A DNA stretch of 47,738 bases, the filler included, from Jimgerdemannia flammicorona (taxonomy: Eukaryota): assembly GCA_003990765.1 (NCBI GenBank). It is 2 parts of 2 records of this genome, joined end to end, with 100 filler letters (N's around TTAATTAATTAA, not from the genome) between each part and the next. Parts side by side here need not be neighbours in the genome. Positions count along the whole stretch, not along the records: positions 23,920 to 47,738 come from RBNJ01001059.1; 1 more part is not named here. One strand, given 5' to 3'. The notes beneath the pieces are model-generated. The model had not been told where the DNA came from. It was given only the letters and a program-made list of their open reading frames with translations, and ran no database searches. Position numbers and translations under genes: made by a program. This document shows positions 7,264 to 47,738 of this stretch, in pieces. Position 1 is the first letter of the stretch. Each line of letters opens with the position of its first letter.

Positions 7264-9794
7264 ATGCTTAGCATCGCAAAAAGCCTCACAAAAGGACCTC
7301 AGCCCAAGTGGGTGAGTATACGTCCCCCCGACCCCCCACCCACCCCCCCTCCCATACTTACATTAGGACTTTTCCCTTTTTTACTTCCCATGCCAGCTTG
7401 CTTCCACGCGGTATCTCTGTGCGTCCATCGCCACCCGTGCACCTTCCAAAGCAGAACCTGCCAACCCGAATCTCAAAACTACCCCCATTGTTCACGATCC
7501 AAGGAATCGGCCGCGGTATCGCATTCTCTTCTTCGGCTCAGATAACTTTGCCGTCAAGCACCTAGCTGCCCTCATCAAGGAGAAAGGTTGGTTTACAAAG
7601 ACGCGTAATTGAACGCGATTCTTGCCTTAAAGAGATTTTTAGTGCACACAGATGTAGGGTATTTTGAGGCGTTAAAATAGATCTAAAGGGGGATTAATTC
7701 AATTTGGTTATAAAGATTACATTCGTAATGTCCGTTCTCACTTTAACCGTCCTCGCAGAACGCCCAGAGTCGGTCATTCGCTCGATTGAGGTCGTCACGC
7801 CACCTGACCGACGCACGGGTCGCAAGCTAAAGGAAATATCCCCTAGTGAGTATCCGATATTGTCGATTTTACAGCAGAAGGAAAACAGAGAGAAAACACA
7901 TCATTATTTACGAATGAGAACAATACGGTAGAGAGTGTACCGCTCATACCCATTCACCACCGTCATCATTTGACTGCAAAATTTCTGATACATTGTTGAA
8001 ATCATCATAAGTGCCGACCAAGGCCCTCGCCGAGCTCCACGATCTCGCCGTGCACCACATCCCTTCTGACATCCCTTCCGGCATCCACTCGTTAGCGGAA
8101 TGGAACGTACGTATTCTCGACCTCATCGTGAGATAGCTCCGTATCCGTGACCCTCACATTCCACCCGCCCCCCATTGGACCGCACTCCGCTTGCCCGTTC
8201 CTGTCCCTCACTATCTAGCTCCCCTCCTCCGCCGACCTCTCCTCGACCGGATTCGATCTGGGCGTGGTCGTCTCCTTCGGCTATTTTCTCCCTCCACACA
8301 TCCTCCACGCCTTCCCGAAGGGCGTCATCAACGTCCACCCTTCGCTCCTACCAAAGTATCGTGGCGCCGCACCGATGCAGCACACTATAATGAATGGTGA
8401 CGTAAAGACCGGAGTCACGGTGCAGGAACTGGATGAAAAGGTGTTCGATGCAGGAAAGATTTTGTTGCAGGAGGAATGGGTGGGTAGGTCCAAAATGCCA
8501 AAAGGGAGAAGTTAATGAAAGGAGTGTCACTTAGTGGGTGTTATTGTGCCGGTTTGGTTTGGCTGCGGGTGTGATTTGAGCGTGGATTTGAGTTGCATAT
8601 GTGATCATGTTGAATTGTTCCATTGCTCGTGATTTTGTCCAAAACACAGAAAATACCCACAGACAAACCCATCATGTTCGATTCGCTGGCAGGGACCCTC
8701 GGCTTGAAGGGCGCTACGCTCTTGGTCAAAACCCTCTGTAACTATGATATATACAAGGTAAACCCTTCGAACAAGACACGATTTGATTCTGTATCACGTG
8801 TCTCTCCATAGTTCGGTCCGGCACGGCCGTAATATTGAAGACGCGGCCGATATTATAAATCCTGGCTGATCTCCGTGTCCAATTCCAAATAGGAGAACGC
8901 AACGACGCAGGTCACGACTCAGGTGACGCACGCCCCCAAGATCACAAAGGATATGGCCTTCATCGACTTTGAAACTATGCCCGCTGAGACGATCGAGCGG
9001 CTGCACAGAGCCATCGGACATCAGGTAGCCATCATCGTCGTATAAACACGCTAAGAAGGAGGATTGTCATCGAGTTTTATCGGGCATTTTTTTTTTTTTT
9101 TTTTTTTTTTACAATTTGCGGCCATTCTTATCAACCCTACCTTTCACAAAACCACGCACATCAGTATCCCATCACGACATACTACACCCTGTGGCGCATC
9201 AAGCGCTCGCTCAAGATCAAGCACAAGCACATCTCCATGCAGCTCTTCAACATTTACCTCCCCATTAAATCGCCGGCACACATCGCGGTCCCGTTCCCGG
9301 ATCCCGGGACCATCTTCTGGGACTTCGATACGAAGACGATGCACGTGGTGTGCGCTGACGGTAACGTGATTGGACTGACGCACATCAAGGCCGAGAGCAG
9401 GAAGGAGATCCCCGCCTACGACTTCTTCAACGGGTATTCGGTGCGCAGCGGTGACGGCCGCTTTGGTGCGTTCGACGACGAGTCGGAAATCGAGCCTGGA
9501 AAGAGCGGCGTGCAGGTCACGAAAAGGAGGGAGGATTATGAGAAAGTTATTAGGAAGAGGATGAAGAGAGCGGCGATAAGGGAAAGGCAAGAGGAAAGAC
9601 TTAGGCGCGGCCTGAGCTATGATACGAACAGTCGGGGGTCGGACGGGGGAGAAGAGTGGTGGAGGGAAGAGAGAGGGAGGGAGAGGGAGGATGGTGCCGA
9701 GTGGCGGAGGGAAGAGAGGAGTACGGGTTGGGGACGGGAGAGGGAGAGTGAAGGAGGGTGGGGGGAGGGAGGAGAAGGGTTTCGAGCCCGATGA
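7264..9794 (+). CDS. FMT1: mitochondrial methionyl-tRNA formyltransferase; exons 7264-7311, 7397-7586, 7759-7845, 8012-8106, 8219-8479, 8650-8757, 8893-9024, 9165-9794 (516 aa)
   Basis: GT-AG splicing gives one open frame of 1551 nt with ILFFGSD, VVTPPD..GR, DLGVVVSFG, INVHPSLLPKYRGAAP (formyltransferase HPSLLP signature), TGVTVQEL..FDAGKIL, APKITK and IERLHRA. Basic, hydroxylated N-terminus resembles a mitochondrial presequence. Confidence 0.93.
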
Positions 9795-23819: not shown

Positions 23820-23919
23820 NNNNNNNNNNNNNNNNNNNNNNNNNNNNNNNNNNNNNNNNNNNNTTAATTAATTAANNNNNNNNNNNNNNNNNNNNNNNNN
23901 NNNNNNNNNNNNNNNNNNN
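23820..23919. other. assembly gap with synthetic six-frame-stop linker
   Basis: 100-nt block of N containing TTAATTAATTAA (23864-23875), which has stop codons in all six frames. Confidence 0.95.
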
Positions 23920-23921
23920 CT

Positions 23922-26900
23922 TCAACCAATGCCCCGGGGGCCCAATCCCCCTCCCTCAACCTCCTCTCGCCCAAGCACCACCCAATCACCTACTACCCGA
24001 ACCCTCCCCCCACTCTTCTGGGAGATACACTGCACCAAACCCTTGTGGTACTCCCCACCCAAACCCCAACTCCACCACCAGCTATTTAAAATGTCCAGCA
24101 GCAACCATTCCCACCATATCGCCTTTTCACCAACCCCGACCCGACGCCCGTCCTCAAATACATACACCCAATGCCCCGCCAACCCAACCCACATGGCCAA
24201 GGCCCAACCAAGTGTCAGCCATTCATCCCCGACCCCACCCACCAATCGCAGATGAAGCTCTCCCCATCTCCCCCCTCCCTCCCCTCCTCCAGCCCCCAAC
24301 CCTAACCTGTCCATTATATGTCTCCAGAACTCCCCCAAAACCTCGCACTCGCCAAGCCAATGTTCAGGCATTTGTACTACTCCTCCCTCCTGATCAACAT
24401 TGAAGCAATCCTCGCACTCGAATACCCCACCATCCACCAAGTAACCAGATCGATAGTTTAGCATCATGTTCCGCCAAAGGACCTGCCACCACGCCAACCA
24501 GAACTTGGGGGGCAGCCACTGCCTTACCCTTTTACTCCAAAGCCAGAGCCTATTCCAATCCCACTCTTTCCCGATTCCAACCCTCTGCCAGGCTTCAGGC
24601 CACAGGTCTCCATCCAGGCCTCGCAGGTACTCCAGACCCTCGCCAAGCTGAAAGTCCTCCACCGGAACACTACCCAAAAGAAGCCTGTCCCATCTCCACA
24701 TCTGCGGTCCCCAAACCTCCTCAGCCTCATCACCTCGCCACTGAAGGTCGATTTTCCTAGCTCCATCCACCACTCCCCACCAAAAGCCTGTAAACCGCAT
24801 CCTCCGGCTTCCATCCATGGCCACCATTGCAAGCAGGTCGCCGGAGCCACCATGTGGGGAGTATCGAATCTCCCACAACCTCTGCATGAGTGGCACCCAC
24901 TCCCGACCTCTAAGCTCACTTGCCCTCCTCAGCCACCAGACCCTCAGATACAAAAGCCGCTTAGTAAAGTCCACTAAGCCCAGTCCACCTCTTTCCAAGG
25001 GCAGTGTGAGCACCTCCCAACCAACCTGGCTCCGCTGCCCTCCCCAAATCCATGACCTCGCCATCTTCAACAACCCCTTAACTACCTACGGTGGGAAATC
25101 CAAATGATATCCAACATACCACAGCTTTGGCATCCAGTACACATTCAACACCATCACCCTTCCGGCAAGAGACATATGCCGACCTCCCCACCATATCAAG
25201 ACATCGCCCCACTCCAGCAGTTTACGGTCCCACCATGCCCGGGGAAGAAGAGATCCGAACACCGAGAAGTAGATCTCCAAGTAGCGTACTGGTTCACTAG
25301 CCAGAACCACCATCCCAATAACATCACCTCCTACAATTCCAGCACCCAGCACCAGCGTCTCGCATTTGTGCCAGTTCAGTTTAGCACCAGAACCCTGCTC
25401 ATACTATTCTACTGTCCTCTGCAACTCCCCAACATCCCCCAAGGAACCCAGTCTGACCACCATGTCATCGGCAAAGGCCCCCACCTTCCAGTTCACCCCC
25501 AAAATGTCCAAACCTCCAATCCTCTGCCGAATCCTGTCCAGTAGTGGCTCTAGGGAAAGGGCATACAATATGGGTGACAAGGGGTCCCCTTGCAGCACCC
25601 CATGGCCCAGGGGGAAGGTCACCCCCCGGTGGCCATTGATGACCAATGCCACCTGACTGTCCTCCAAGAGTCTGATCAATGAACCTCGGAACCCCAAGGG
25701 GATACCAATCCGCTTCAGCACTCCTTCCAGCCAAATTCGCCACACTCTATCATAAGCCTTCTCCTGGTCCAGAAACACCAATCTGCCATCCACCCCTGTA
25801 GCCCGGGCACCTTCAATCACTCCATGAACCCAGGCCGTCCCATCTCGAATCAACTGACCACTGACAAACCCACGTTGCTCCAAACCAAGCACTTGCTGTG
25901 CAATCCCTTGCAACCGCAACACCAAGATTTTCGTCACCAGTTTGCGGTCCATGTCCAGAAGCATGATCGGCTGCCAGTTCTTCCAATCCTCCCTCCTGCC
26001 CTTGTTCTTATACAGCAAGGAGATCAGCCCAAAGCGCTGACCCCCAATCCAGGCACCAGACCGAAGAACTTCATCGCACATAACCATCATTTCCTCCAGC
26101 ACCTCATGCACCCCTATCATCTTCTGCCAAAAATCCCAGGGGAGTCCATCTTCTCCCAGAGCTGTCCCTTTACTCATAGAGGCCACTACCTTGCAAATCT
26201 CCTCGCTGCTCACCAGGTCCCCCAATGCCCCAAGTCCCATGGCAGGGTCCAGGTGCCAATCCCCCAGCTGCCTGTCAATGTTCTGAGCATCCAGTCCCCC
26301 TTCATCCTCACTCCAAAGGTTCCCCCACTGGGAACGCAATAGGCCCAAAATTGCCGGAGTCCCCACCACCAGCTTGCCATTCTCATCCAAAACTCCCTCC
26401 CACCGCTGCCTCATTCGTCGCGCTTGTAACAACCGTGACAAGAACCTGGTAGGTCTCTCCCCTTCCTCTAGCCCCTGCCAGCGCAAGTGGGTCACCATCC
26501 CCTGCAACTGCTCCTCTTCCTCCCTCCGTAATATCCCTTTGAGCTCCTCCACCTCCTGCCGGATCCTTGTAATATGCCAATCAGTCTTGGCCCTATCCTC
26601 CAGCACACCCGCCCATCTCTCTATGAGCACCACCAAATGCTGCGAGGCCCACATCACCCGCCGCCTTCGCTGAGCACACTTCCCTTTCCCCGCTTCTCTC
26701 TAATACCCCTGAGCCTTCACCTTCAACCTTCTCCAGCGGTCCCCAATCACCAGTCCTTGATCCCGCTACCTGCCAATAACGCCAACCACCTCTGCTTTCC
26801 AACCCTCCCACAATGCCCTATCCTCCAACAAGGAAGAATTTAGCCGCCAATGTCCAGGCCCATCCTCATTTCCCCCAAACTTTCCCCCTCCAAGCAACCC

Positions 26901-27584
26901 CCAGTGATCAGACCATGGACACCATATGACTCCCAGCACTGTCCAGACATCTGCTCCCCAACACTCCGCTGTGAGAACCCAGTCAATCCTAGAGCCCAGT
27001 TCTGCTGCCCAATGGGTATACACCCGCCGATCAGTCCAAAAGTGTCTCCCTGAGTCCACTAAAGAACACAACCTTTCCGTCTCCAACCAGTCCGCCAACC
27101 CACCACTTTCACCTCGCATGCCTCTCCCTCCATCAGTCCTGTCCAACTCCTTATCCCGTACCATATTGAAGTCTCCTCCCATACAGTCTAACCTAACTTC
27201 TCCCAACAAATCAGCCTCTTTCAACCTGCGAATCCAATCCACTCTCTCCCCTCTCTCAGCCAGGCAGTAACAAGACTCAACCGTCAGCGAGCCCCATCCA
27301 GGCCTCTTCCATACTCCCCACACCACCTGTGACCCCCAATGTCCAATGTCCCCAATGTCCCCCATCCCTTTCCGAACAAGAATACCCACTTTCCCCCTCC
27401 AAACTGCTGCACCCCCCCATTCCTTAGTCCAATCCTGTAAATCCACACCTGCCTCATACCAAACATCCTGTAACAAGAAGAGGTCCGCATCCAGACCCCG
27501 AAGCCAACTAAAGATGTACTTCCTCCTAGCCACCCCCCGTAACCCATTAACGTTCAATGAAAATATCCTTGTTATACTATTCAT
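23922..27584 (-). pseudogene. LINE ORF2 (APE endonuclease, reverse transcriptase, C-terminal zinc motif), ~1220 codons, one frame with 4 TAG stops
   Basis: SLNVNGLR, LLQD, GGDFN, SRIDW, SDH (APE); PIMLLDMDRK, LDQEKAYDRV, GVLQGDPLSP, AFADD, YL (RT); CEDC..PEHWLGEC. The ORF pieces ending at 26766, 25404, 25086 and 23922 are all in the same frame. Confidence 0.92.
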
Positions 27585-27615
27585 ATTGAATAGAAATTGT
27601 AAAAGAGACCTCAAC

Positions 27616-29547
27616 CTATAATTCCATGCTCATCTCATCCCTCGCCAAGTCCAAGAGCCGCTCAGCTTCCAATTCACCCTCTGCAATATCCCGAGCATCC
27701 AGTGCCCCCAAAATTTCCTGACACTCCACCCTGTCCACCTCCTCCATATTCGCCCTGTAATCCAAGCAGACTGCACGCCACTTCTCTAGTCCCTTCCTCG
27801 AGTTCCACAAGACAAGTACCCAGTCACTCACAATCCTTCTAAGCTCCTCCTCTCGCTGATCATCAACCTGATACTCGACCAACTCCAGAAGGACAGCCAG
27901 GATCTCATTCCTCATCTTCCTCGGCACCTCTTCCTCACATAGAATCTCCTCCCAATGCCTCTCCTCCATCACCCTGAAGTCCTCACCCCCCAGCTCCTCA
28001 GCCACTACCCCTTCCAGGGTCTTCCACATCCACTTCTCCTCATCGACTGCCTCCACCGCCCCCTGAGCAATCTGTCCCCCATCCACCTCGGGGTCCACCA
28101 GTGCGCTCCTCCTCACTGACTCATCCCACTCCTCATCTGGCACATCCATCAGCTCCTCCTCTCCTTCTGCCCCATTTGGAACACTATACTGAGGGTACCC
28201 ACCTTCTCCCATTTCAGCATCCACCTCCAAGTTATTCTCCCACTCCTCCCCAACTCCAATCTGAGCCCCGCCCTGGGCCATCTCTCCCCCTTCAGCCCAG
28301 GTGCTCTCCCGCAACCCTGCAGCCCCTGCTCTGGAGCTTCCACCAGCCCCACCCCCACCCAACTTCGCTAACAACTCCTTCTGAATCTTCCTCCCCTGCA
28401 ACTTCTCCCAGGCCCCCTTCTCCATCCGAACCCTCTTCCCATCCACCTCCTCCACCACCGTCCTCATCTCAAATTCCTTCCAGGCTAATCTCCTCCTTGC
28501 AACTGCCCCTTCCAGATCCTCCAGAGCCTCCAACAGATCCTCCTCCTCCTCCTCCTGAGTCCCCTTCACCCTAGTGACCTTACACTCCACCGGTCCCCAC
28601 CTCAGTGCTGCTGGCCAGTCCCTTGACTTCCCCGTATTCTCCTTTCCAGCCAGTCGCACCCTGACATCGACATCTCCAGTCCTAAGCTCCGTGCCCTCCC
28701 AGACCTTGAACTCAACATCCACAATCTCGCCATACTCCTTGATCGCCTCCACAACCAACTCTCTGGTCCTTTCCTTCGACATGGTAGGGAGGTCCAACAC
28801 TGTCAACTGTACCACCCAGAGGTCCCAGCATATACACTGGGCCATAGGGACCACAACCCCGCCAACTACCACCCCCTTCTCCATGGCTGCCAACAAGGCG
28901 TCCTCCTCCTCAAACCCCACCTCAACCCCTTCCTTTCCCCTCAAGAACTTCACCGATGCCACTCCCTTAGCCTCCTGCGCCACCAGCCCCAAAATCATTC
29001 TCGCCATCACGGCCAAGCCCTGGAAGCACATTGTGACCACGAACTTGGACCTCAACTTCTTGAGTAACGGGGCCGACACCATGCTCGTCACCCCATCCAC
29101 CAGGTCTCCGGGCCTCATGCCCCCTCCAAGTCTCAAATTGCCGACTGCTGTCACATCTGGATTTTTTGCCAGATCCCCAGTCACAGCCCCATCAGCAGTC
29201 ACATCTCCAGCCCCTACTCCAGCCCCTTCCCTACCACCAGAAGTACCCTGGAGTGTATCTCCCTGACCCCCGGCAGTAGCCATCGATGCCTTCTCCAGTC
29301 CCAGCCAACTATCCAGCCCAGAAGCCATCTTCCCCATCCTGACCTTGTCAGCAAAGATCGACCGCTCCCCTCCTCTCTGCCTCAGACCTCCCCTCCCTCT
29401 GCTGCTGGGGCCCCGGCTAGCCATCGAGGCCCCTGGCATCCCCAAACCATCTCCCCTCCTCCCCACCTGCTGCCAGCCAAAGGCGCCGTCACCCCCCTGG
29501 CCAGTACGCTCACCAGATCGATCATTGCCGTCCATATTGTTAGTCAT
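27616..29547 (-). CDS. LINE ORF1 (nucleic-acid chaperone, RRM-like core), 643 aa, intact
   Basis: Uninterrupted ATG-TAG ORF directly upstream of ORF2. Central VQLTVLDLP..EAIKEYGEIVDV..RTG resembles the Tx1/L1 ORF1 RRM region; acidic helical C-terminus. Confidence 0.8.
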   Translation of the reverse strand: MTNNMDGNDRSGERTGQGGDGAFGWQQVGRRGDGLGMPGASMASRGPSSRGRGGLRQRGGERSIFADKVRMGKMASGLDSWLGLEKASMATAGGQGDTLQGTSGGREGAGVGAGDVTADGAVTGDLAKNPDVTAVGNLRLGGGMRPGDLVDGVTSMVSAPLLKKLRSKFVVTMCFQGLAVMARMILGLVAQEAKGVASVKFLRGKEGVEVGFEEEDALLAAMEKGVVVGGVVVPMAQCICWDLWVVQLTVLDLPTMSKERTRELVVEAIKEYGEIVDVEFKVWEGTELRTGDVDVRVRLAGKENTGKSRDWPAALRWGPVECKVTRVKGTQEEEEEDLLEALEDLEGAVARRRLAWKEFEMRTVVEEVDGKRVRMEKGAWEKLQGRKIQKELLAKLGGGGAGGSSRAGAAGLRESTWAEGGEMAQGGAQIGVGEEWENNLEVDAEMGEGGYPQYSVPNGAEGEEELMDVPDEEWDESVRRSALVDPEVDGGQIAQGAVEAVDEEKWMWKTLEGVVAEELGGEDFRVMEERHWEEILCEEEVPRKMRNEILAVLLELVEYQVDDQREEELRRIVSDWVLVLWNSRKGLEKWRAVCLDYRANMEEVDRVECQEILGALDARDIAEGELEAERLLDLARDEMSMEL

Positions 29548-29621
29548 CGGGCACCAAAAACGTTGTAAAAAGTGTTGTCTGAGTTTTGTGTCACCCGAAT
29601 GTTACTGGTGAAAGCATATCG

Positions 29622-30507
29622 CCCATGACTCATAGTACTGTAACCTATAGAAGGTATGCAGATAGCAAATCTGATGAAAGTGAAGACGATGTACCCCTCC
29701 TTCACCCACCAACACCTTATCCAGCATATGAGACAGATGATGCTATTCTGTGAGATAGTGATGAAGTTCCAATGTATTATTACCTCAATAAACAAGAAGA
29801 AGTAATCTGCAAACCACTCTTCCTAGATGACTACTTCATCAGAGATGATACAATTGATGGTGATGTCATCGAGGACTACCCAGACAGCACCTAAACCCAT
29901 AAATAGCCTAGCAGTCATAGTATAGTTAGATTAGCCTTGTACTATATAACTGTATTCTGACTCAGTAAGGTACTTAGTGCTATATCCATATTCAGCATAG
30001 TCCAGATAGCCCCTCACTAGTATAAATACCCCCTCTCCCAGACCTCAGAATCTTAGACTAGAACACACAAGAACATTCCTGAATACTTCCCCACAATATC
30101 CCTTCACACAACTACTCCTAGTATAACAATATCATGAATAGCGAATAAACCTATTTAATAACCCACAAACCACTCTTAAGTAAATCTGCCCCCCATTAGG
30201 TCCCACTCCTAACCCCATCATGAAATTTCCTAATTGGGTATTGTCTGTAGCAATACGCCGATTCAACTAAGCTGGTCTTAGTTTTTTGAACTTCCTGAAA
30301 TACAGAAAATCCTGAACATCCAGAACTAGTCTGAAAAAGGACCTTGGTTGAGATGTCAACCCGATCTTGAAATCAATAAGCATAGAGGACGTACTCTATA
30401 TGAAATTGATCTTGACCATAAGAAAACAGTCTTCCAGAATATCCAGAACTTCCAGAAAACCCTTCTAGAACTATGTAATGGCTACCCTAAAAAGTAACCC
30501 TCTTACA
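29622..30507 (+). repeat. 5' LTR of copy 1 (3' portion only; first ~1082 bp absent)
   Basis: Aligns with 38110-38951 and ends CTTACA. TATAAATA at ~30021 and AATAAA at 30144-30149. Confidence 0.93.
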
Positions 30508-30510
30508 ACT

Positions 30511-30522
30511 TGGTAGCAGTGG
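30511..30522 (+). promoter_or_regulatory. primer-binding site, initiator tRNA-Met type
   Basis: TGGTAGCAGTGG three nt after the LTR. Copy 2 has TGGTAGCAGCAG, implying ancestral TGGTAGCAGCGG. TGGTAGC is complementary to the 3' end of eukaryotic tRNAiMet. Confidence 0.8.
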
Positions 30523-30643
30523 TTTACAATCCAATTCTGCTTCAAGACACTTCCTCACCCCGCTACAAACCCCTCTGTAAATTCCTACAAGTTGGTATAA
30601 AGCCCAACCTCTGAACTGGAATTTATCTGAACCATCTAACAAT

Positions 30644-32457
30644 TTGGAGAGAATTGAACCTGACGTACAAGGACAATTTGACCTTCACACCTGCAACAAG
30701 TGGGACAAACTTCATTCGAAAAAAGAAGTACTCCAACTAAATCAGCAAATAGATGAAACCCTATTCACTGAACTCCTTGCACTATACCCAGTAAGTCAAG
30801 ATGAAGAAGGTCTTATTGAAGTCTTCTTTACTCTTCTCAACAAGAGTTTTGTTAGCTCTACAAATCCAAGCGACCTAGGACAACCAGCAGCAGTCTTTCT
30901 AGCCTTAGTTTCTTACAAAGTCCAAGCCTCTGTAGCTAAGTGGCTCAACTCTACTGACTTTCACTATACCAGGACCAAGACCACATTATACTATCAATTC
31001 CAGAACAGCAAGGCCTGCCATATTCTTAAAGAAGAAGCAAGAGAAACCCTTCATCAACTATCTGACCCTGAACCTGAAGCAGGCCCTGCTACAGTCCTAC
31101 CTGAATCTGAAACCAATACCGAACCTGAACTTGACTTTGAATTAAGTCTATCTGAAATCAGATATACAACTAATTCTGTCTACTTTGATGCTGAGCAAAT
31201 CCAATTACATGGGGACCAAACTGAAGAAGAGGAGGAGTATCTCAGTAAATTCAATCCCAGATATACTACTGAAGGAGACACCCTTCCATCAGGACAGAAT
31301 ACACCTACTCAGCAACAAATAGCTATCTATCAAGCCCTTACTCCAGATCCACAACTATTACTCCAGCAACTTACACAGACCCAAAGAACCCCATCACACT
31401 CTACACCAGTATCTCAAGTAGTATCAGTAACACCACTACTAGCAGTCCAACCACCTCCAGTAAACAATATAGTGAACCAACAGATTCTAGACCTCACAGC
31501 CCAGGTAGCCATAATGGCAGCAACCATTACTGCCTTAGCTGAACAGACCCAACCTACCAAAAATCTGAGCCTACCTACCTTCAATGGTACTGTACAAGAA
31601 GTCCAAAGCTTCATTAGTGTAGTTGACACCAACTTCGAAGCCAATCAATAGACCAATGAGCGAGTTGCTGACTACATCCTGACAAATAATCAAGACCACA
31701 CTCTGGAACAACTCTTTGCTACCACTATAGCCTATGTCTGCCAAGTTGTTACATTCTTCTGAGGACCTGCCAAAGAATGGTGGCAAACCCTTCCTGAAAA
31801 ACCCCTCATATGGGATACCTGATCTGCAGTAGTTGCTCAGAATGCAGCGAACAATACCCCAGGATATGGAGCCCATCCTGCAGCCCCTGGACTCAAACAA
31901 CTCATAATTGCCCAATACCACAGCAAAACCATGATCACTGAATCCCGAGTAAAACTCTGCAACCTCAAATTCGATGTACATGGTAAAGAAGAATTCAAAA
32001 CCTTCTGTATAAAACTCAAGTCACTCCTGAACACTGTTGGCCTAGGATATATTGCCAATGATGAAGCACAAAATGGTACAAGAGTAGACCATTTATTCAA
32101 TGCCCTGCCTGAATGGCTTACTAGAAAAATCTGAGAACAAGGCTGCCCAGTTGATTGTGATTACCAACAATGGTGCCTGGTAAGAATCAAGACTATGGTC
32201 AAGTAAATCCTAACAGCTGGACCAATTCTGCCTGAAGACAATTCAATAATAAGGAAAGGACTTGGACCAAGAAAGAAGAACCCAAGCATGAAGCATCCCG
32301 AGCTCCCTCCACATCCACCTCTTGGACACTCAGAAATCATGAACCCACTCAGCCAAGTACCTTCAAGAAACTTACTGAAAGTGAAAGGAATGAACTTCGA
32401 AGAAGTAGAGCATGCTTCTATTGCCAAAAGACAGAACACATGACCAGTGCCTACCCT
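30644..32457 (+). pseudogene. gag: gag (long N-terminal extension, capsid, CCHC nucleocapsid)
   Basis: LPTFNG, F(R)GPAKEWW and ALPEWL capsid-type motifs. Zinc knuckle CFYCQKT(G)HMTSA(C)P at ~32413-32457, restored from copy 2. In-frame stops present. Confidence 0.8.
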
Positions 32458-32529
32458 AACCAAAAACCCCAAACAGCAACAAGAGCAACTATTACCACTC
32501 TGCACCACCTCAACAACTTGACCACCAGA

Positions 32530-32940
32530 ATACTAGACTTTGTGAAGTTAAGACAAACTGCTAAGGCCCCAACCAAAGGAAGTCAGAAAGCAGCTGGATA
32601 TGACCTGTATGCAGCCGAAGAAGCTACAGTTTCCAACCAAGAAGTTAAACAAGTCTACACAGGAATCAGCATCCATATCCCTGAAGGACATGTTGGAAGA
32701 ATATGCTGTCACAGCAGCCTAGCATTGAAAGGACTCTCAGTAGAAGGAGGAGTTATTGATGAAGATTACACAGACAAAATCATTGTCCTCATCTGAAACC
32801 ATAGTTGGACACTCTTCAAGATCCCTATTAGTTTCTGCATTGCCCAGATTCTATTCGAAAAAATCGAGTCAACCCTGACAATTAAGGAAGTCCCTGAACT
32901 ACTGCCCCCTATCCGAGGATTCAAAGAATTTGGCTCATCA
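32530..32940 (+). pseudogene. dut: dUTPase domain of the retrotransposon polyprotein
   Basis: All five trimeric dUTPase motifs recognisable: AAGYDL, GRI..(R)SSL, GGVIDEDY, IAQI, RGFK(G)FGSS. One TGA at 32794. Confidence 0.92.
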
Positions 32941-33159
32941 AACAAGACCCCAACTCAACCTACCATGAGCAAAGAAGAACAATTCTACAAGAAGATCGAA
33001 GATGGATATGTACCAAGTGGCTGATGCCCTCATGGTATTGGAATGTACTCTTCCCAAATAATTGATGATTGCTTCTCTTATATCAATGAACTAGCTCAAA
33101 GAAGAACCAACAGAAGAAAACCTCCTATAACTGAAATCACTACCATTAGATCAGACAAA

Positions 33160-36100
33160 CTGCTCACACTTAAGGCTTTTGTCAACCGAGTACCTGTTAA
33201 GATTATGATAGACAGTGGTGCCTCAGGCAACTTCATCAATGAAGAAAACAGCCAACAGACTTAAAGTCTTCACCTCTCCGGTACAACAAACCCAAGCAGT
33301 GGCCACAGCCGATAGAACCTCACATATTATTAGCAAGGAAGTCCACAACCTACCCTTCTGAATTGGCAATTATCAAGTACATGTCACTCTCCAAATTGTA
33401 CCACTTCCTGACAATGAAATCATCCTTGGGACTCCATGGTTAAAACAAGAGAACCCCATGATCGATTGGGTAAACCATTCTCTGACCATCAAGAAAGGAT
33501 GCCACAACTTCAAACTGCAAGGCAAGAAGGACCCACTTAATTCTAGTGACCCTGGACCAAAGATCACCTACATTAACAAGCTACAACTTAAGAAATTGGC
33601 CAAGAAATGCCCTCTCTTCGCCATCTCCATCTGTCTATCCAAAGGAGAACCCAAGAACCCTGAAGAAGATTTTTTCAAAGTTAATAGTCATGTCAGACCA
33701 CTACTCCAGAAATTTCGAGACATATTCCTAAAGAAGCTCCCGAAAGGCCTACCTCCTAAACGAGCAGTAGACCACACCATTAAGACTATCCCAGATGCCA
33801 AACTAGCCTTCAAGTCAATCTACCACATGTCTCCAAGAGAAATCGATGCACTTAAGAAAGAAATTGACGAACTCCTAGAACAAGGATTCATCAGACCCAG
33901 TGTATCACCCTATAGTACACCAGTCCTCTTTGTTGTCAAAAAAGGAGGAGACCTGTGAATGTGTATTGACTACCACAATATCAATGAACAGACCATCAAG
34001 AACTATTGCCCACTACTGAGGATCAATGAAATATTTGATAGACTTACCAACCCACAATTCATGAGCTCTTTTGACCTATGAAATGGCTATTGGCAAATTG
34101 CTATAAAAGAAGAAGATATCTACAAGACAGCTTTCTGAACTTGCTATGGACACTTTAAGTTCCTGGTTATGCCCTTTGGCTTAACTAATGTTCCAGCAAC
34201 CTTCCAGACACTAATGAATACCATTCTGCATCTATACCTGGACAAATTCGTTGTTGTCTACATTAATGACATCCTAGTCTTCAGAAAAACTCTGGAGGAA
34301 CATCTTGAACACCTTGAGCTAGTACTACTGAAACTCCAAGAAAACCAACTCTTTGCAAAACTCAGCAAATGCGAATTCCTCCTGAAAGAAATTCAATTCC
34401 TTGGACACATTGTCACTCCAAATGGAATCAAAGTGGACCCCAGCAAAATCGCTGCAATCAAGGATTGGCCCAGACCCAAGAAGCTAAAAGACCTCCAGTT
34501 ATTTCTGGGATTAGCAAACTATTACAGATGATTTGTTACCAACTTTGCTAAAATTGCTACTGCCCTCACCCAAATGACCAAGCATAGCAAGAAACAAGAA
34601 CAACTCTGGACTATAAAACAAGAGAAAGACTTCAACAATCTTGTAACTTGGGGACCTGAGCAAGATACTGCCTTTCAAGTACTGAAAGATGCCCTGATAA
34701 TGACTCCAGTACTTCAAGTGGCAAATCCTGCTCTACCATATGAAGTTACTACTGATGTCTCTGATCTAGCTCTTGGAGCAGTGCTCATGCAAGAAGGACA
34801 CCCTGTGGCCTATCACTCCTACAAGTTCAATGATGCTGAAATTAACTATGCAACTCATGAGAAGGAAATGCTAGCTATTATAGATACTTTGATCAAATGG
34901 CAACCCTACTTAGAAGGAGCATACTTCACTGTATTAACTGACCACAAGTCATTAGTCAACATCAAGATACAGGCTACCCTTTCTCGAAAGCAAGCCAGAT
35001 GGATGAAAGTCCTCACCAACTTTGACTATGAAATCCAGTACCACCCTGGCAAGAAAAATATTGTTGCTGATGCAATCTCCAGACCACCTATTAAAGAAGT
35101 TATCCAAACTCTCACCTTGGTTACCAACACTATCATGGAGCAAATTATTGCAGCATATGCTGATGATAAGGAAGCTTAAGCACTGTGAGGAATCCTGAAC
35201 AGTGATGATGCCGACAAGTATACACAGTATCATTAATACCACCTGAAGGACAATGCTATCTACTACAAAGACAGACTGTATGTCCCAAACAACTGAGACC
35301 TCCGAAGGACAATCCTATTTGAATGTCATGATGCCCCTATAGCTGAACATTTAGGATTCGATAAATGCTACAAAGTTATCTCCCGAAACTTCTATTGGCC
35401 CCACATAGCAGATCAGCTCAAAACCTAATCACTTCCTGTGATGCCTGCCAATGAAACAAGTCCTCAATACTAGCAAAACCTGGCTTACTTTACCCTATCC
35501 CAGTACTATCTGTGAATTAGGAACAAATCTCTATAGACTTTATTGTACAACTACCCCGAATCAAGAACAAGAAAGATGCAATTGTTGTCTTTGTGGATTA
35601 CCTCAGCAAATAAGCCCACTTTGTGTCTACTACCACTACTGCAACAGCACCAGACATAGCCAGACTCTTATTTGACAATATCTTCCGCTATCATGGTCTT
35701 CCTAAGATCATTATTAGTGACCAAGACCTGAAATTCACTAGCTATTTTTGGAAAGCCCTCCATGCATACCTTGGAACAAAACTTGCACTATCCACAGTCT
35801 TTCACCCAAAAACTGATGACCAAACTGAAAGAATGAACTGAACTCTGGAATAAATGCTAAGGAACTATGTTTCCTACAGATAAGATAACTGGCATGAACA
35901 CCTCACTGCAGTCAAGTTTGCTTATAACAATAGCAAGCAAGCCTCTCTCAGAATGACCACATTCTTTGCCAATACTGAATAAAATCCAAACACCCCTTTG
36001 ACACTTATCCGAACCACTAAAGAACCCTCCACAGTTGAAGCTGTTGAAGAATTCTTACTCTGAATGTACAATCTAAGCCAGATTGCCATCGAGAATTTAT

Positions 36101-36600
36101 CACAAGCCCAAGAACAACAGTCACAGTATGTTAACCAATACCACCAAGAAGAAACCTTTGATATTGGAGAAAAAGTTCTACTAGATATCAGAGGATACTG
36201 AGTTGACAACCTCAAGTACAGACCATCTACAAAGCTGAATAGAAAGTTCATTAGACCATTTGAAGTCATTACACAAGTCTCTCCAACCTCCTACAAATTG
36301 GCACTACCAGATACTATTAAGATTCACCCAGTCTTTAATGTTCAATGTCTCAAGTAATATAATGAGAATAATGACAAGCTATTTCTAAACCGGACCACCA
36401 AACCACCTGTACCTATCATCATTAATGACCAGGAAGAGTACAAAGTTGAACAAATTCTTAACAAATGTGGCAACAAGAGCCACCCTGAGTATCTTGTCAA
36501 ATGGAAATGTTACCTGATCCATGATGCAACCTGGGAACCCAAGACCAATCTCCAGAATGCTACTGACCTACTTTAGGAATATGATTCCTTGAACGACTAG
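33160..36600 (+). pseudogene. pol: pol: aspartic protease, RT, RNase H, integrase, chromodomain
   Basis: IDSGASGNF (PR); [16 protein letters not shown] (decayed YIDD); [24 protein letters not shown] (RNase H); CHD..HLG..CDAC, IISDQD, QTERMN (IN); EEYKVEQIL..EYLVKWK..ATWEP (chromodomain, ~36430-36570). Nonsense codons and two 1-nt frameshifts (~33245, ~35427). Confidence 0.95.
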
Positions 36601-37013
36601 AACCAGATACTCTGCACCTATCCATACATACTATATATTATCCTCCCGAACATTATAATTATTGCAAACTAAATCAAGAACTCAGCAAAACAAGACAAGA
36701 ATACTGACCCTCTGGAAAAATAGCAAAATTGAAAGCAAGCCTATTCTCCCTATACCACTGGTGGGAAACAAGGCATAGATAATTAAGAAGATTCCTTAGA
36801 GGAAATTCTCCAGCAGTGAATGACGTCAGAATCACTTCTGGCATATGTCATTGAATATACGGCCCTTTAACATGTGAATCCAATATGTTAGGCAACTGTA
36901 CTACAAGCATGTCACTTTCTGAGAAAAATAGACTTTACTAGACTTTTGACCTCCCAAACGGTGTAACAACACTAGAACAAAATTAGAAGGCCCCAATGAG
37001 GATGCCAAAAGCT

Positions 37014-37026
37014 AAGAAGGGGAGAG
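37014..37026 (+). promoter_or_regulatory. polypurine tract
   Basis: AAGAAGGGGAGAG ending one nt before the TG of the 3' LTR. Confidence 0.9.
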
Positions 37027-37105
37027 TTGTAAGCACACAACTGCCAAGCCACTGAAATTACATGTCACTCTCTGAACAAATCTGGAAATCACCTGCTTGA
37101 TCATG

Positions 37106-37168
37106 AAGCTGAGTCAAACCGAAGTCACAGTACACAAAGCTGAGTCAATATAAAGTCACAGAATACAA
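37106..37168 (+). promoter_or_regulatory. 31-bp tandem repeat in U3 with two TGAGTCA (AP-1/Gcn4-type) sites
   Basis: AAGCTGAGTCAAACCGAAGTCACAGTACACA / AAGCTGAGTCAATATAAAGTCACAGAATACAA. TGAGTCA at 37110 and 37141. Confidence 0.5.
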
Positions 37169-37284
37169 GATTTACACAAATGGAATCTTACCAATCAGGA
37201 CCAAATACATATATACCGAGCACTGAGACACGTCAAATCAGAGAACCAAAACAAACAACAACTATAACTTCCAAACACACAAAT

Positions 37285-38382
37285 ATGACCACCAAGATCT
37301 ATATCTGTATCCGCGCTGACATTTGGAATGCCATTGTCAATAGAGCGACACCCCCTCTGCCCCTCATAAATATCCATAGCCTAGCACCCCTCTACTTTGT
37401 GGAAGCCTGATAGAATGCTCTGAACATACTTAGTGAGGTCCACCGAATTGGACAAATCTCAAGCTACTACCAGATTGGCTGCCTCCTGGAAGACATGATC
37501 GAACACCACCACAATACAGACATTATCCAGATGTCTCAATACCAGAAGCTTATCACCCACAAACATCGAGAACTCTTCTATGAGTATAGCACCATTATTC
37601 CCTGCCTCCGAGTTACCACAGCCAAAATGGTTGCTACTCTTTCCTATGGCCAAATCGACAACATAATACAAGAACTCAATCACAAGTACCTTGAGTATGT
37701 CGAAACCATAGACAGAACCTTCCTACACCCCAATGATCATATCCTACAAATGCCCCAAGTTGGATATGCCATGAAGGATATCTATGATATAATCCACTTT
37801 GATGAAGACAAAGCAGAAGACAATGATCCCTCTGATGCCAATATGACCTCTAGCCAAGGATCTCTGCCAACCCTGATCATACTGCCAACCTTGCTGATGA
37901 ACTTACAACAATTCATAACAGCATATGAGACTTATTGGGACAATGACCACTAGTATGAATACCAACTTGCATTTACCCCCAATTACTTCAACTACAATGA
38001 AGAGACCGGAGAACACAACCTATACCTCCAGACAACCCTCGAGATTGAACCAACCACTCCACCACCTGAGTATGAGTGATATGAACCACAGCCACCAGCT
38101 TACTACAACCCCATGACTCATAGTGCTGTAACCTACAGAAGGTATACAGATAGCAAATCCGATGAAAGTGAAGATGATGCACCCCTCCTTCACCCACTAA
38201 CACCTTATCTAGCATATGAGACAGATGATACTATTCTGTGGGATAGTGACAAAGTTCCAATATATTATTACCTCAGTGAACAAGGAGAAGTAATCCGCAA
38301 ACCACTCTTCCTAGATGACTACTTCATCAGAGATGATATAATCAATGGTGATGTCATTGAGGACTACCCAGACAGCACCTAA
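37285..38382 (+). pseudogene. LTR-encoded accessory ORF, 365 codons, unknown function
   Basis: ORF pieces 37180-37410, 37495-37953 and 38113-38382 share one frame. Four stops; at three of them copy 2 has a sense codon, and all can be explained by C-to-T/G-to-A decay. Confidence 0.8.
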
Positions 38383-38951
38383 ACCTATAAATAGCCTAGC
38401 AGTCATAGTATAGTTAGATTAGCCTTATACTATGTGACTGTATTCTGACTCAGTAAGACACTTAGTACTACATCCATATTCAGCATAGTCTAGATAGCCC
38501 CTTACTAGTATAAATACCCTCTCCCCCAGACCTCAGAATCTCAGACTGGAACACACAAGAATATTCCTGAATACTTCCCCACAATATCCCTTTACACAAC
38601 TACTCCTAGTATAGCAATCTTAAGTAAATCTGTCCCCCATTAGGTCCCACTCCTAACCCCATCACAAAATTTCCTAATTGGGTATTGTCTGCAGCAATAT
38701 GCTGATTCAACTAAGCTGGTCTTAGTTTCTTGAACTTCCTGAAATACAGAAAATCCTGAACATCCAGAACTAGTCCAAAAAAGGACCTTGGTTGAGACGT
38801 CAACCCAATCTTGAAATCAATAAGCATAGAGGACATACTCCATATGAAATTGATCTTGATCATAAGAAAATGGTCTTCCAGAATATCCAGAACTTTCAGA
38901 AAACCCTTCTAGAACTACGTAATGGCTACCCTAAAAAGTAAACCTCTTACA

Positions 38952-40067
38952 AAAACCCTCTCCCACCACCTATCAAGTACTGCTCCCCTATTAACCTAGG
39001 CTAGCTATTGTTCAGTAGCTCAACCATACCAGGTGTAGCAGGACCTATAGTGGCCTGTATCTCATTCTGCACACCATGCTCTTCCTACTACTAGGGGAAA
39101 CTCAACCATATACCAATGATCAAAAGCATATGCCCAAGAACTCGATGTATATACAAAGCTATGCCTGAGCCAAATAGAACAACCCCTACCATTCCAAAGA
39201 GAATAACAGATAAAGAAAAACCCTCATCAAAGTACAACATGGTGGGTAGGGCCTTGTTCTCCTAGTTGAGGTGAGTAAAGGACTTACACATAAGGCAGGA
39301 GGAGACCCCCAATACCCCACTACTCAAGTCTGTGAGCCTTGATCATATTGTCATATTAGCTCCTAGTTCCAGTTGAGTGCAGCCAAGATGCCTGAAATGA
39401 GTAGCCTCAGGCCCCCTGACCCCCCTTAATGACCGGAGCCTAACCTGCCAACCCACCAAAAGAAGCTGAGAGTATCACTTACCACCTAACCATGCCACAC
39501 CAATCAAAAGGCCCCACTGAAGTAGCACCTACCCCAGCCCTGATGACCACCCCCAGCCTGGCACCCTACTGGTTTACCATTATCACTCTTCCTCCTATCT
39601 GTGATGGCCATCTCTCCTCCCATCCCAACAATATCTGAAAAGCAGTCACCTATGCCAGAACTACACTTACTGGGAAGCTTACCAAAGCCAGAGGGCCCCA
39701 CTATAGGTACCAAGGACCTGCAGGTAATCTATACTGAGCACTTAACACCTAAGGTTGACCGACTCCCTACATAGCCCAAGACACACCAAGACACCACCTT
39801 ATTAGTGACAGCAAAAGGAAGAAGGCACTGCACCAAAATGAATGCACTCCAGATGCAGCTGAAGGTACCAGAAACTGCAAAAAAGTGGAGAAGACACTGA
39901 TCTGACACCAATAAAGGGGCAACTCATCACCATTGTCCTCCTCTCACTATACCTATGCAGGCACAGCAAACTAACCTAAGGTAGAGGGGGTAATAATAGG
40001 GGAAAGAGACTCGGAAGATTGCCTATCAAACCTTGTGACTGATAAGGTAGCAGAGAAAGGAGTGTTG
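38952..40067. mobile_element. unidentified decayed TE-like sequence between the two Gypsy copies
   Basis: CpG-depleted, C-rich on the plus strand like the LINE, not alignable to the Gypsy element. No diagnostic motif read. Confidence 0.3.
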
Positions 40068-45697: not shown

Positions 45698-47738
45698 TGT
45701 AAGAGGGTTGCTTTTTAGGGTAACCATTATGTTGTTCTGGAAGACCATTTTCTTAAAGTCAAGATCAATTTCATATAGAGTATGTCCTCTATGCTTATTA
45801 ATTTCAAGATTGGGTTGATGTCTCAACCAAAGTCCTTTTTCGGACTAGTTCTGGATATTCAGGATTTTTCATATTTCAGGAAGTTCAAGAAACTAAGACC
45901 AACTTAGTTGAATTGGCATATTGCTGCAGACAATACCCAATTAGGAAATTTCATAATGGGGTTAGGAGTGAGACCTAATAGGGAGTAGATTTACTTAAGA
46001 GTGGTTTGGTTGTTATTAAATAGGTTTATTTGCTATTCATGATATTGCTATACTGGGAGTAGTTTGTGTAAAGGAATATTGTAGAGAAGTGTTCAGGAAT
46101 ATTCTTGTATTTGAGTGTTCAAGTCTATTTGAGTCTTTCAAGTCTGAGATTCTGAAGTCTGGAAGAGGGGGTATTTATACTAGTAAGGGGCTATTTAGAC
46201 TATGCTAAATATGGATATAGTACTTAGTACCTTGCTGAGTCAGAATGCAGTTATATAGTATAAGTATAATCTGATATATCAAGAGATCATCTGACTGCTG
46301 AGTCAGTTTACAGTCATTTCATATAAGGCTAATCTAACTATACTATGACTGCTGAGCTATCTATAGATTTAGACACTATCTGGGTAGTCTTCAATGATAT
46401 CACCATTGATGTCATCATCTCTGATGAAGTAGTTATCTAGGAAGAGTTGTTCATAGATTAATTCTCCTTGTTCACTAAGATAATAATATATTAGAACTTC
46501 ATCACCATCCTACAGAATAGTATCATCTGTCTTATATGCTGGATATGGAGTTGGTAAGTGAAGAAGTGGTGTATCATTCTCACTTTCATCAGATTCGCTA
46601 TCTGTATACCTTCTATAGGTTACAGCACTATGAGTCACAGGATTATAGTAAGCTGGTGGCTGTAATTCATGTTGCTCATACTTAGGTAGTAGAGTGATTG
46701 GTTTGATCTCAAGAGTTATCTGAAGGTACAGATTGTGTTCTCCAGTCTCTTCATCATAGTTGAAGTAATCAGAAGTGAATGCAGATTAGTATTTATGCCA
46801 GTGATCATTGTCCTAATAGGTCTCATAGGTGATTATAAATTATTGTAAGTTCATTGGCAAGGTTGGCAAAGTGATCAGAGTTGGTAGAGATTCTTGGCTG
46901 GAGGTCATATTAGCATCAGAGGGATCATTGTCTTCTACTTTATCTTCATTGAATCAGATTATATCATAGATGTCCTTTATGGCATATCTGACTTGAGGCA
47001 TTTGCAGAATATGGTCATCGGAGTATGGGAAGGTTCTGTCTATAGTCTCAACATACTCGAGATACTTGTGGTTGAGTTCTTGTATCATATCATTGATTTG
47101 GCTATAAGATAGAGTAGTGATCATTTCAGTGATAGTAACTCAGAGGCAGGAAATAAAGGTGCTGTACTTATAGAAGAGTTCTTGATATTTGTGGGTAATG
47201 AGTTTCTGATGTTGGGACATCTGAGTAATATCTGTATCATGATGGTGTTCAACCATATCTTCTAGGAGGCAGCCAATCTGATAGTAGCTTGAGATTTGTC
47301 CAATTTGGTGGACCTCACTAAGCATGTTCAAGGCATTCCATCAGGCTTCTATGAAGTAGAGGAGTGCTAGACTATAGATATTCATGAGAGGTAGAGAGAG
47401 TGTAGTTCAGTTGACAATGGTATTCTAAATGTCAGTGCAGATGTAGTTGTAGATCTTGGTGGTCATGTTTGTATATGTTCAGAAGTTATAATTGTTATTT
47501 GTTTTAATTCTCTGTTTCAATACATCTTGGTACTTGGTATATATGCATTTGGTCCTAATTGGTAAGATTCTGTTGTGTAAATCTTATATTCCATAACTTC
47601 ATATTGACTCAGCTTGTATGCTATGACTTTGGTTTAACTTAGCTTTGTGATTGAGTAGGTAATTTCCAGATTTGTCCAGAGATCATGTGTGATTTTGGTG
47701 GCTTGTTTAGAGGATGATATGTGATTTCAGTGACTTGG
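45698..47738 (-). repeat. 5' LTR of copy 2 (runs ~16 bp past the window end)
   Basis: TGTAAG at 45698 is the CTTACA end on the minus strand. The window end corresponds to ~37044 of the 3' LTR of copy 1. Confidence 0.93.
46369..47466 (-). pseudogene. LTR-encoded accessory ORF, copy 2
   Basis: ATG ACC ACC AAG ATC TAC at 47466 to TAA at 46369; 1098 nt, the same length as in copy 1. Confidence 0.75.

Follow-up and report, generated by a model that had tools for sequence, protein, structure and literature searches.

A probable 365-codon protein gene inside the long terminal repeat of a Ty3/Gypsy chromovirus from Jimgerdemannia flammicorona

The superantigen gene sag of mouse mammary tumour virus (MMTV), which encodes a type II membrane glycoprotein, lies in the unique 3′ region (U3) of the viral long terminal repeat (LTR), and in other retroviruses, namely human and simian immunodeficiency viruses (HIV/SIV) with nef and foamy viruses with bel/bet, accessory coding sequence extends into the 3′ LTR. 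To our knowledge, a sense open reading frame (ORF) lying wholly within an LTR is known only from retroviruses, in the form of MMTV sag. Here we describe an ORF of this kind in a retrotransposon, found in a 47,738-nucleotide stretch of DNA from Jimgerdemannia flammicorona (assembly GCA_003990765.1; “the window” hereafter). The right third of the window consists of two decayed copies, elements A and B, of one LTR retrotransposon family in opposite orientation. The element is a Ty3/Gypsy chromovirus in which a dUTPase stands between nucleocapsid (NC) and protease (PR), and its LTR carries a sense frame of 365 codons, present over its full length as copy A (3′ LTR of element A) and copy B (5′ LTR of element B). 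With a probability of about 0.8, we believe that this frame was a genuine protein gene and that, as long as the family was active, purifying selection constrained it as tightly as it did gag and pol.

The likeness to MMTV sag is one of layout: in both cases a sense gene of about 320–365 codons sits wholly inside a long LTR (1.3–1.9 kb) and is duplicated with it, and betaretroviruses share the NC-dUTPase-PR order. Unlike Sag, however, the present protein has no transmembrane (TM) segment and no sequence likeness to the superantigen, its host is of fungal type, the element has no env gene, and the U3 location is putative. The accessory frames nef and bel/bet begin upstream of the LTR and merely overlap it, whereas the present ORF begins 257 nt inside. 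An ORF in the MMTV LTR is mentioned in the available part of PMC9412291. Exact-phrase searches of the open-access literature returned an MMTV review and unrelated uses of the wording but no case of an LTR-borne ORF in LTR retrotransposons, although absence from print is not thereby shown.

Additional ORFs in other parts of LTR retrotransposons are well documented. In the available portions of the papers cited here, plant elements have sense and antisense additional ORFs, including ORF1 of Ogre (PMC7264820, PMC3485330) and the ORF0 upstream of gag in Retrosat2, RIRE3 and RIRE8 (PMC3485330), and Boty/BcGypsy1 of Botrytis has an antisense additional ORF, brtn (as cited in PMC8365987 and PMC7264820). 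Like these, the LTR frame is a lineage-restricted orphan besides gag-pol, kept in diverged members and without assigned function. The published ORFs are internal, located either ahead of gag or in the stretch from pol to the 3′ LTR, with brtn antisense; the present one, in contrast, is sense, within the LTR, and found twice per element. The dUTPase also has fungal precedents, in the chromoviruses PosPlaTy3 of Postia placenta and elements of Phanerochaete and Tuber, with one fungal chromovirus family carrying it at the amino end of Pol (PMC2864245). Our element shares the Ty3/Gypsy affiliation, the chromodomain and the dUTPase domain with these, and with that one family also the position of the dUTPase at the amino end of Pol. 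The betaretrovirus-like design proposed in an earlier note on this DNA, made from the sequence alone, thus stands in part: the NC-dUTPase-PR order is real (Table 1), but the accessible text of PMC2864245 already describes the dUTPase arrangement. A legend in the same paper (Figure 3) names an “add. ORF” with no known function for some fungal element, and the part of its text at hand puts no additional ORF inside an LTR; the present ORF is set apart from that “add. ORF” by this text only, and the two may overlap. We regard the LTR-contained ORF as a variant on the known additional-ORF theme, and the dUTPase arrangement as not new.

The frame spans 1098 nt in both full LTRs, and its last 270 nt recur in a third, truncated LTR, exactly as the earlier note had it; it lies wholly after the polypurine tract (PPT) and inside the LTR, ending 569 nt before the LTR does. 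The ORF also stands upstream of the primer-binding site (PBS) in both 5′ LTRs, and so belongs to the LTR proper, not to the end of the internal region. Mononucleotide shuffling leads one to expect 18.6 ± 4.2 stops in copy A and 22.6 ± 4.5 in copy B, against 5 and 10 observed with the terminal stop included, and the observed count was reached by 0 of 2000 shuffles for copy A and about 2 of 2000 for copy B.

Copies A and B align without a gap over the whole 1098 nt at 83.1% identity, and the differences between them are distributed as in a coding sequence under constraint. Of 186 differing sites, 169 are transitions, and they fall on codon positions 1, 2 and 3 in the proportions 60/35/91 (chi-square 25.4). 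The ratio of nonsynonymous to synonymous divergence (dN/dS, method of Nei and Gojobori, NG86) is 0.185 in the proposed frame, compared with 0.77 and 0.98 in the other two sense frames and 0.47–1.24 in the antisense frames. As controls we took other blocks of the same element pair, each in its true frame: reverse transcriptase, RNase H and integrase (RT-RNaseH-IN) together gave 0.169, dUTPase/PR 0.245 and gag 0.225, which places the LTR frame level with pol. The divergence on which the ratio is based is large, with a proportion of synonymous differences (pS) of 0.40. The contrast between frames is weaker in an 880-nt gag/NC block and a 530-nt integrase block (best 0.39 and 0.34), both of which contain frame changes. 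A 269-nt non-coding LTR block gave 0.32–0.80 on very few differences, and short blocks are therefore noisy. The ORF0 of Retrosat2 evolves faster than its ORF1, according to the available part of PMC3485330; the LTR frame is unlike it in having the dN/dS of pol.

The base composition of the frame has the same signature, with guanine at codon positions 1, 2 and 3 at 0.25/0.10/0.12 in the ORF and 0.26/0.11/0.13 in pol, an excess at position 1 in both. The two LTRs of element A itself differ at 21 of 270 sites spread evenly over the codon positions (7/6/8), which is neutral decay after insertion, as expected without selection. Stops are also scarce in the antisense frame that faces the ORF, with 9 in one copy and 14 in the other, but dN/dS is 0.57 there, and the openness of this frame is apparently a side effect of the codon pattern on the sense strand, not a second gene.

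Insertions and deletions keep out of the frame. Between copies A and B there are no gap events in its 1098 nt, as against 3 in the 208 aligned nucleotides upstream and 5 in the 538 downstream (8 in 746 together); a Poisson expectation would be 11.8 events within the frame, and the probability of none is about 8 × 10⁻⁶. One 6-column in-frame “event” counted by the script is a gap in both rows forced by the third row of the alignment, and was not counted. The indel-free zone matches the borders of the frame: on the upstream side there is a 2-nt indel, 8 nt short of the ATG, and on the downstream side the first indel, of 63 nt, comes 41 nt past the stop codon. The LTR family is abundant in contigs from four public runs of three studies, and among the differences listed for these contigs there are 3 indel places in the ORF and 9 in the surrounding 1003 nt. 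Two of the three within the ORF form a +1/−1 pair 6 nt apart. This pair consists of one nucleotide inserted behind 37618 and one deleted at 37624 and is seen in contigs of three of the four runs; it alters two codons, after which the frame is restored, and it is the majority form in run X5 (depth 18.8/20.8). Both the indel avoidance and the dN/dS below 1 that the earlier note had proposed as checks are thus observed, and with a dN/dS equal to that of pol, its central claim, an accessory protein gene within the LTR and duplicated with it, is borne out.

More distant relatives of the frame are open as well. A profile search of 1.84 billion representative proteins returned only two matches, P0003 and P0004. 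The 128-residue P0004 has the same MTT start and is 80% identical to residues 1–128; at codons 42–43 it has Arg-Trp where the window copies have stops (TGA-TAG) or TGA-TGG. The 247-residue P0003 is 60% identical to residues 115–364, with two 2-residue in-frame gaps only, and an open frame of 247 codons at such a distance would be hard to explain without selection. A word-index search of 5.8 billion clusters gave one match among those of near length, one among shorter ones and none among longer ones, the last being weak evidence. No relative was confirmed among 35 and among 444 pattern matches in metagenome contigs, among 281 in viral contigs, or among 38 in genome contigs. Searching the window by tblastn with P0001, P0003 and P0004 found the three LTR copies only, and the ORF is thus no divergent version of gag or pol from this element. 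Judged by its dN/dS and by these two open relatives, the frame is what is elsewhere called an additional ORF, one outside gag and pol that is conserved in its family; additional ORFs so defined lie in the internal region, and this one lies within the LTR.

All three copies in the window are dead, mainly through C-to-T and G-to-A transitions in CpG-depleted DNA. The observed-to-expected ratio of CpG is 0.19 in element A, 0.04 in element B, 0.44 in the neighbouring long interspersed nuclear element (LINE) and 0.07 in a 1.1-kb spacer between the two elements, whereas the non-repeat DNA at 1–23800 has 0.98. Copies A and B together have 13 stops. At 12 of them a residue only one transition from the stop, R, W or Q, occurs in a further copy or in P0003/P0004, and the stops TGA, TAG and TAA stand opposite CGA, TGG and CAA of other copies. 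The exceptions are codon 171 of copy B, which is more than one step from copy A, and codon 265 of copy A, for which a single step suffices only with CGA as the ancestral codon. The attribution of the stops to deamination is thus supported. The excess product of CpG loss is strand-biased, since on the sense strand of the elements TpG is at 1.55 in element A and at 1.45 in element B, where it is read as CpA on the + strand, while CpA is at about 1.03–1.04.

The predicted protein has 365 residues and a pI (isoelectric point) of 4.4; 57 of the residues are acidic and 20 basic, and Tyr makes up 8.9% and Cys 0.8%. Its C-terminal 220 residues include 43 acidic residues, 22 Tyr and 20 Pro. Low-confidence models give helix over about residues 1–140 and mostly coil after that. 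No Pfam family matched either copy, stops read as X, at E ≤ 1, a profile search of PDB sequences gave only noise (E 0.24), and in the ESM Atlas P0003 had no usable feature match, with structure matches at template-modelling scores of ≤ 0.30, while P0004 met only unnamed or unrelated clusters at 0.90–0.93, with recognition below the bar. Together with the search of representative proteins, this agrees with the earlier note in that the protein matches no described family. From its sequence, the product would be a soluble, acidic, Tyr-rich and Cys-poor protein without relatives outside this element family. A helical head and a long acidic, Tyr/Pro-rich tail, if modelled correctly, would suit a binding adaptor better than an enzyme. 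Short motifs were scanned (PPxY/LPxY, YPxL, PTAP, motifs resembling nuclear localization signals, and others), and a late-domain function was rejected on the grounds that the PPEY/PPAY of the window copies are not kept in P0003.

Several observations weigh against a selected LTR gene with the properties just given. No single record has all 365 codons open: P0004, from a 1180-nt contig, ends at residue 128, and P0003 begins at a Met aligned to M115, so that the part upstream in P0003 may be closed or absent, some 250 nt of its 998-nt contig being left over. Both full copies have TGA at codon 42, and a sense codon at that place occurs only in P0004; the four stop positions of copy A are absent among the best-supported contig differences listed, which leaves the contigs neutral on sense codons there. 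Only two lineage pairs were compared. The division into helix and coil is weak, with an AlphaFold2 mean pLDDT (predicted local distance difference test) of 30.6 for a 4-row and 44.5 for a 3-row alignment and 0.39 for the Atlas model of P0003. The PPxY-type motifs at residues 260 and 270 are absent from P0003, and no conserved short motif backs the adaptor idea. Lastly, the promoter motifs of the LTR are no more than matches to a consensus, and in copy B the upstream TATAAA is gone and one TGAGTCA is left.

Where in the LTR a real gene would lie depends on where transcription of the genome begins. The earlier note placed the frame before the main TATA box, which holds insofar as TATAAA motifs follow the stop at 38386 and 38509, but another TATAAA, at 37149, precedes the ATG by 136 nt. 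If genomic RNA started at this upstream motif, the ORF would lie in the repeat or unique 5′ region (R/U5) as a first cistron, a leader ORF within the repeated part of the element. Ahead of this motif stands a 31-nt tandem repeat containing two TGAGTCA sites, and the borders of U3, R and U5 are unreadable from DNA alone. An R or U5 of over 1.5 kb is unusual, however, and 365 codons ahead of gag would presumably hinder gag translation. The least diverged part of the LTR is its last 340 nt or so (8.9% over 38615–38883 versus 16.9% in the ORF), as expected of a short R-U5 downstream of the ORF, and the TATAAA at 38509 is kept in all three LTR copies. For these two reasons we favour U3 and think it probable that the ORF lies there; the R/U5 placement seems unlikely, even with the precedent of the upstream additional ORFs of plant elements such as Ogre and Retrosat2 (PMC3485330, as far as its available part goes).

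The remaining alternatives deny the gene or change its nature. The frame could be a passenger that an ancestral LTR captured from a host gene or another mobile element and that was useless to the element, its apparent conservation stemming from a recent shared master copy. LTRs and internal regions do capture foreign sequence (5S in Cassandra, Bs1), and the frame is without a known domain. A recent master is nevertheless difficult to reconcile with a pS of 0.40 at the dN/dS of pol, the 60%-identical relative is still open over 247 codons with in-frame gaps only, and no host-like homologue appeared among the 1.84 billion representatives or the 5.8 billion clusters; we consider this explanation quite improbable. 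Chance openness has in its favour an A/C-rich sense strand, poor in T and G, which lowers stop frequency, and the few stops of antisense frame 0 as well. Shuffles of the same composition nevertheless carry far more stops than are observed, and the bias across codon positions, the dN/dS, the lack of indels and both open homologues are all contrary, which makes a frame without any gene very improbable. The LTR location recalls MMTV sag, and with it an envelope-like or Sag-like type II membrane protein, but the product is acidic and has no Pfam match, and its highest 19-residue Kyte–Doolittle mean is 1.33, with no TM segment. The hydropathy scan found neither the signal peptide nor the membrane anchor or fusion segment of a retroelement env protein, and the N terminus (MTTKIY...) is not hydrophobic. 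That the protein does not look like env, as the earlier note had held, is thereby confirmed, and a membrane protein is hardly credible.

Taking the frame as a selected gene, we can outline how it might serve the element. Such an accessory gene would be copied with the LTR at every reverse transcription. A selfish element retains a gene only when that gene aids its multiplication, and therefore this protein most likely helps retrotransposition or blunts host control. Most likely it would act in trans as an adaptor, with the tail binding host or element proteins. The anti-silencing or host-manipulating factor suggested in the earlier note is favoured by none of the present results. Its expression could plausibly come from a promoter of its own in the first 250 nt of the LTR, with use of the LTR's own 3′ processing site, a suggestion that we put forward tentatively; by analogy with MMTV sag, a spliced or 3′-coterminal subgenomic RNA is also possible, while translation as a leader ORF, should genomic RNA start upstream, seems unlikely. 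Taken furthest, every LTR, whether 5′, 3′ or solo, might be a self-contained cassette of enhancer/TATA, 365-codon gene and 3′ processing site, scattering a trans-acting factor even after loss of the internal region and so promoting retrotransposition of the family or countering silencing. This we regard as doubtful, though worth stating. The spread by solo LTRs that the earlier note envisaged was not seen in the window, the third copy being the truncated 5′ LTR of element A and not a solo LTR.

The features of the two elements are listed in Table 1. The hallmarks of LTR elements are present: TG...CA ends and a preceding PPT at the 3′ LTR of element A, and a PBS-like TGGTAGCAG behind both 5′ LTRs. 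In frames of element A with stops read as X, Pfam recognized the dUTPase (PF00692, 3.6e-27) over 126 of 129 profile positions, followed in order by RVT_1 (5e-25), RT_RNaseH (2e-29), Integrase_H2C2 (9e-10), rve (5e-5, under its Pfam cut-off), SH3_Tf2-1 (5e-15) and Chromo (6e-12). The order PR-RT-RNaseH-IN and the chromodomain after the integrase are those of chromoviruses, and with the dUTPase between the CCHC motif and the DSGA of the protease the element is a Ty3/Gypsy chromovirus with the NC-dUTPase-PR order; its assignment to the dUTPase-bearing chromoviruses is made from domain content. Element B lies on the − strand, and its internal part is broken off near 40056.

Table 1. Coordinates of the LTR frame and of the elements that carry it, as positions in the window
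Feature	Position	Strand	Details
LTR-borne ORF, copy A	37285–38382	+	365 codons plus stop; MTTKIY...DYPDST; internal stops at codons 42 (TGA), 43 (TAG), 223 (TAG) and 265 (TGA)
LTR-borne ORF, copy B (5′ LTR of element B)	46369–47466	−	1098 nt; 9 internal stops
End of ORF in truncated 5′ LTR of element A	29625–29894	+	Last 89 codons plus stop (270 nt); 1 internal stop
31-nt tandem repeat (2 copies) upstream of ATG	37106–37168	+	Tandem Repeats Finder; TGAGTCA at 37110 and 37141; TATAAA at 37149; candidate own promoter/enhancer
Motifs downstream of stop	38386–38514	+	TATAAA at 38386, TGACTCA at 38446, TATAAA at 38509; candidate genomic promoter
3′ LTR of element A (copy A, A3)	37028–38951	+	1924 nt, TGTAAG...CTTACA; three-way LTR alignment, contig joint returning to 37028
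Polypurine tract directly before 3′ LTR	37014–37026	+	Purine run AAGAAGGGGAGAG; pattern search
Truncated 5′ LTR of element A	29622–30507	+	PBS-like TGGTAGCAG after it at 30511
5′ LTR of element B (B5)	45698–47738	−	Reaches window end; PBS-like TGGTAGCAG next on − strand
Internal part of element A	30508–37027	+	gag to chromodomain; many stops and frame changes
CCHC motif, element A	32413	+	Pfam, translations and motif positions (also for the five rows below)
dUTPase, element A	32560–32940	+	
Protease DSGA, element A	33211	+	
RT, element A	34004–34414	+	
RNase H, then integrase, element A		+	Between RT and chromodomain
Chromodomain, element A	36439–36585	+	

At the start of the LTR, the copy number of a unit of about 40 nt (CCAAG.CACTGAAAT.ACA...) varies, as seen from 47650–47738 (−) against 37045–37085 (+). 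Copy B has one extra such unit, and loose contig ends at 37045 show likewise in other copies.

Other repeats surround the two elements. A LINE-type non-LTR retrotransposon occupies 23920–29601 on the − strand, with matches to an Exo_endo_phos endonuclease (2.6e-9) and to RVT_1 (4.8e-19) and a 661-residue first ORF at 27619–29601 without a Pfam family. Its GC content is 0.55, and its + strand is strongly enriched in C (GC skew −0.43 to −0.50). At about 29601/29622 the 5′ end of the LINE meets the 5′ LTR of element A, which is truncated, and two runs of N (23820–23863 and 23876–23919) lie at the other end of the LINE. The spacer at 38952–40055, 1.1 kb from the end of the 3′ LTR of element A to the broken end of element B, matches neither element and is probably another decayed repeat. 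Far from these, at 8988–9791 (+), a patch rich in GC (0.52) contains an open frame of 268 residues that matches Formyl_trans_C weakly (E 6.6e-4, 20.3 bits versus a cut-off of 21.1).

LTRs are usually taken as non-coding control regions and are masked by annotation pipelines, and solo LTRs are counted as inert scars or promoters. A selected gene within the LTR would mean that each element has two copies of an accessory gene and that solo LTRs could remain coding. It would also mean that a layout known from a betaretrovirus was reached independently by a retrotransposon of fungal type and, if the cassette LTR is true, that it is the fungal, non-viral counterpart of the MMTV sag design. With the frame comes an orphan protein family, for which the one plausible role lies in the contest between retrotransposon and host, and fungal genomes with heavy cytosine methylation would be good systems in which to study that contest.

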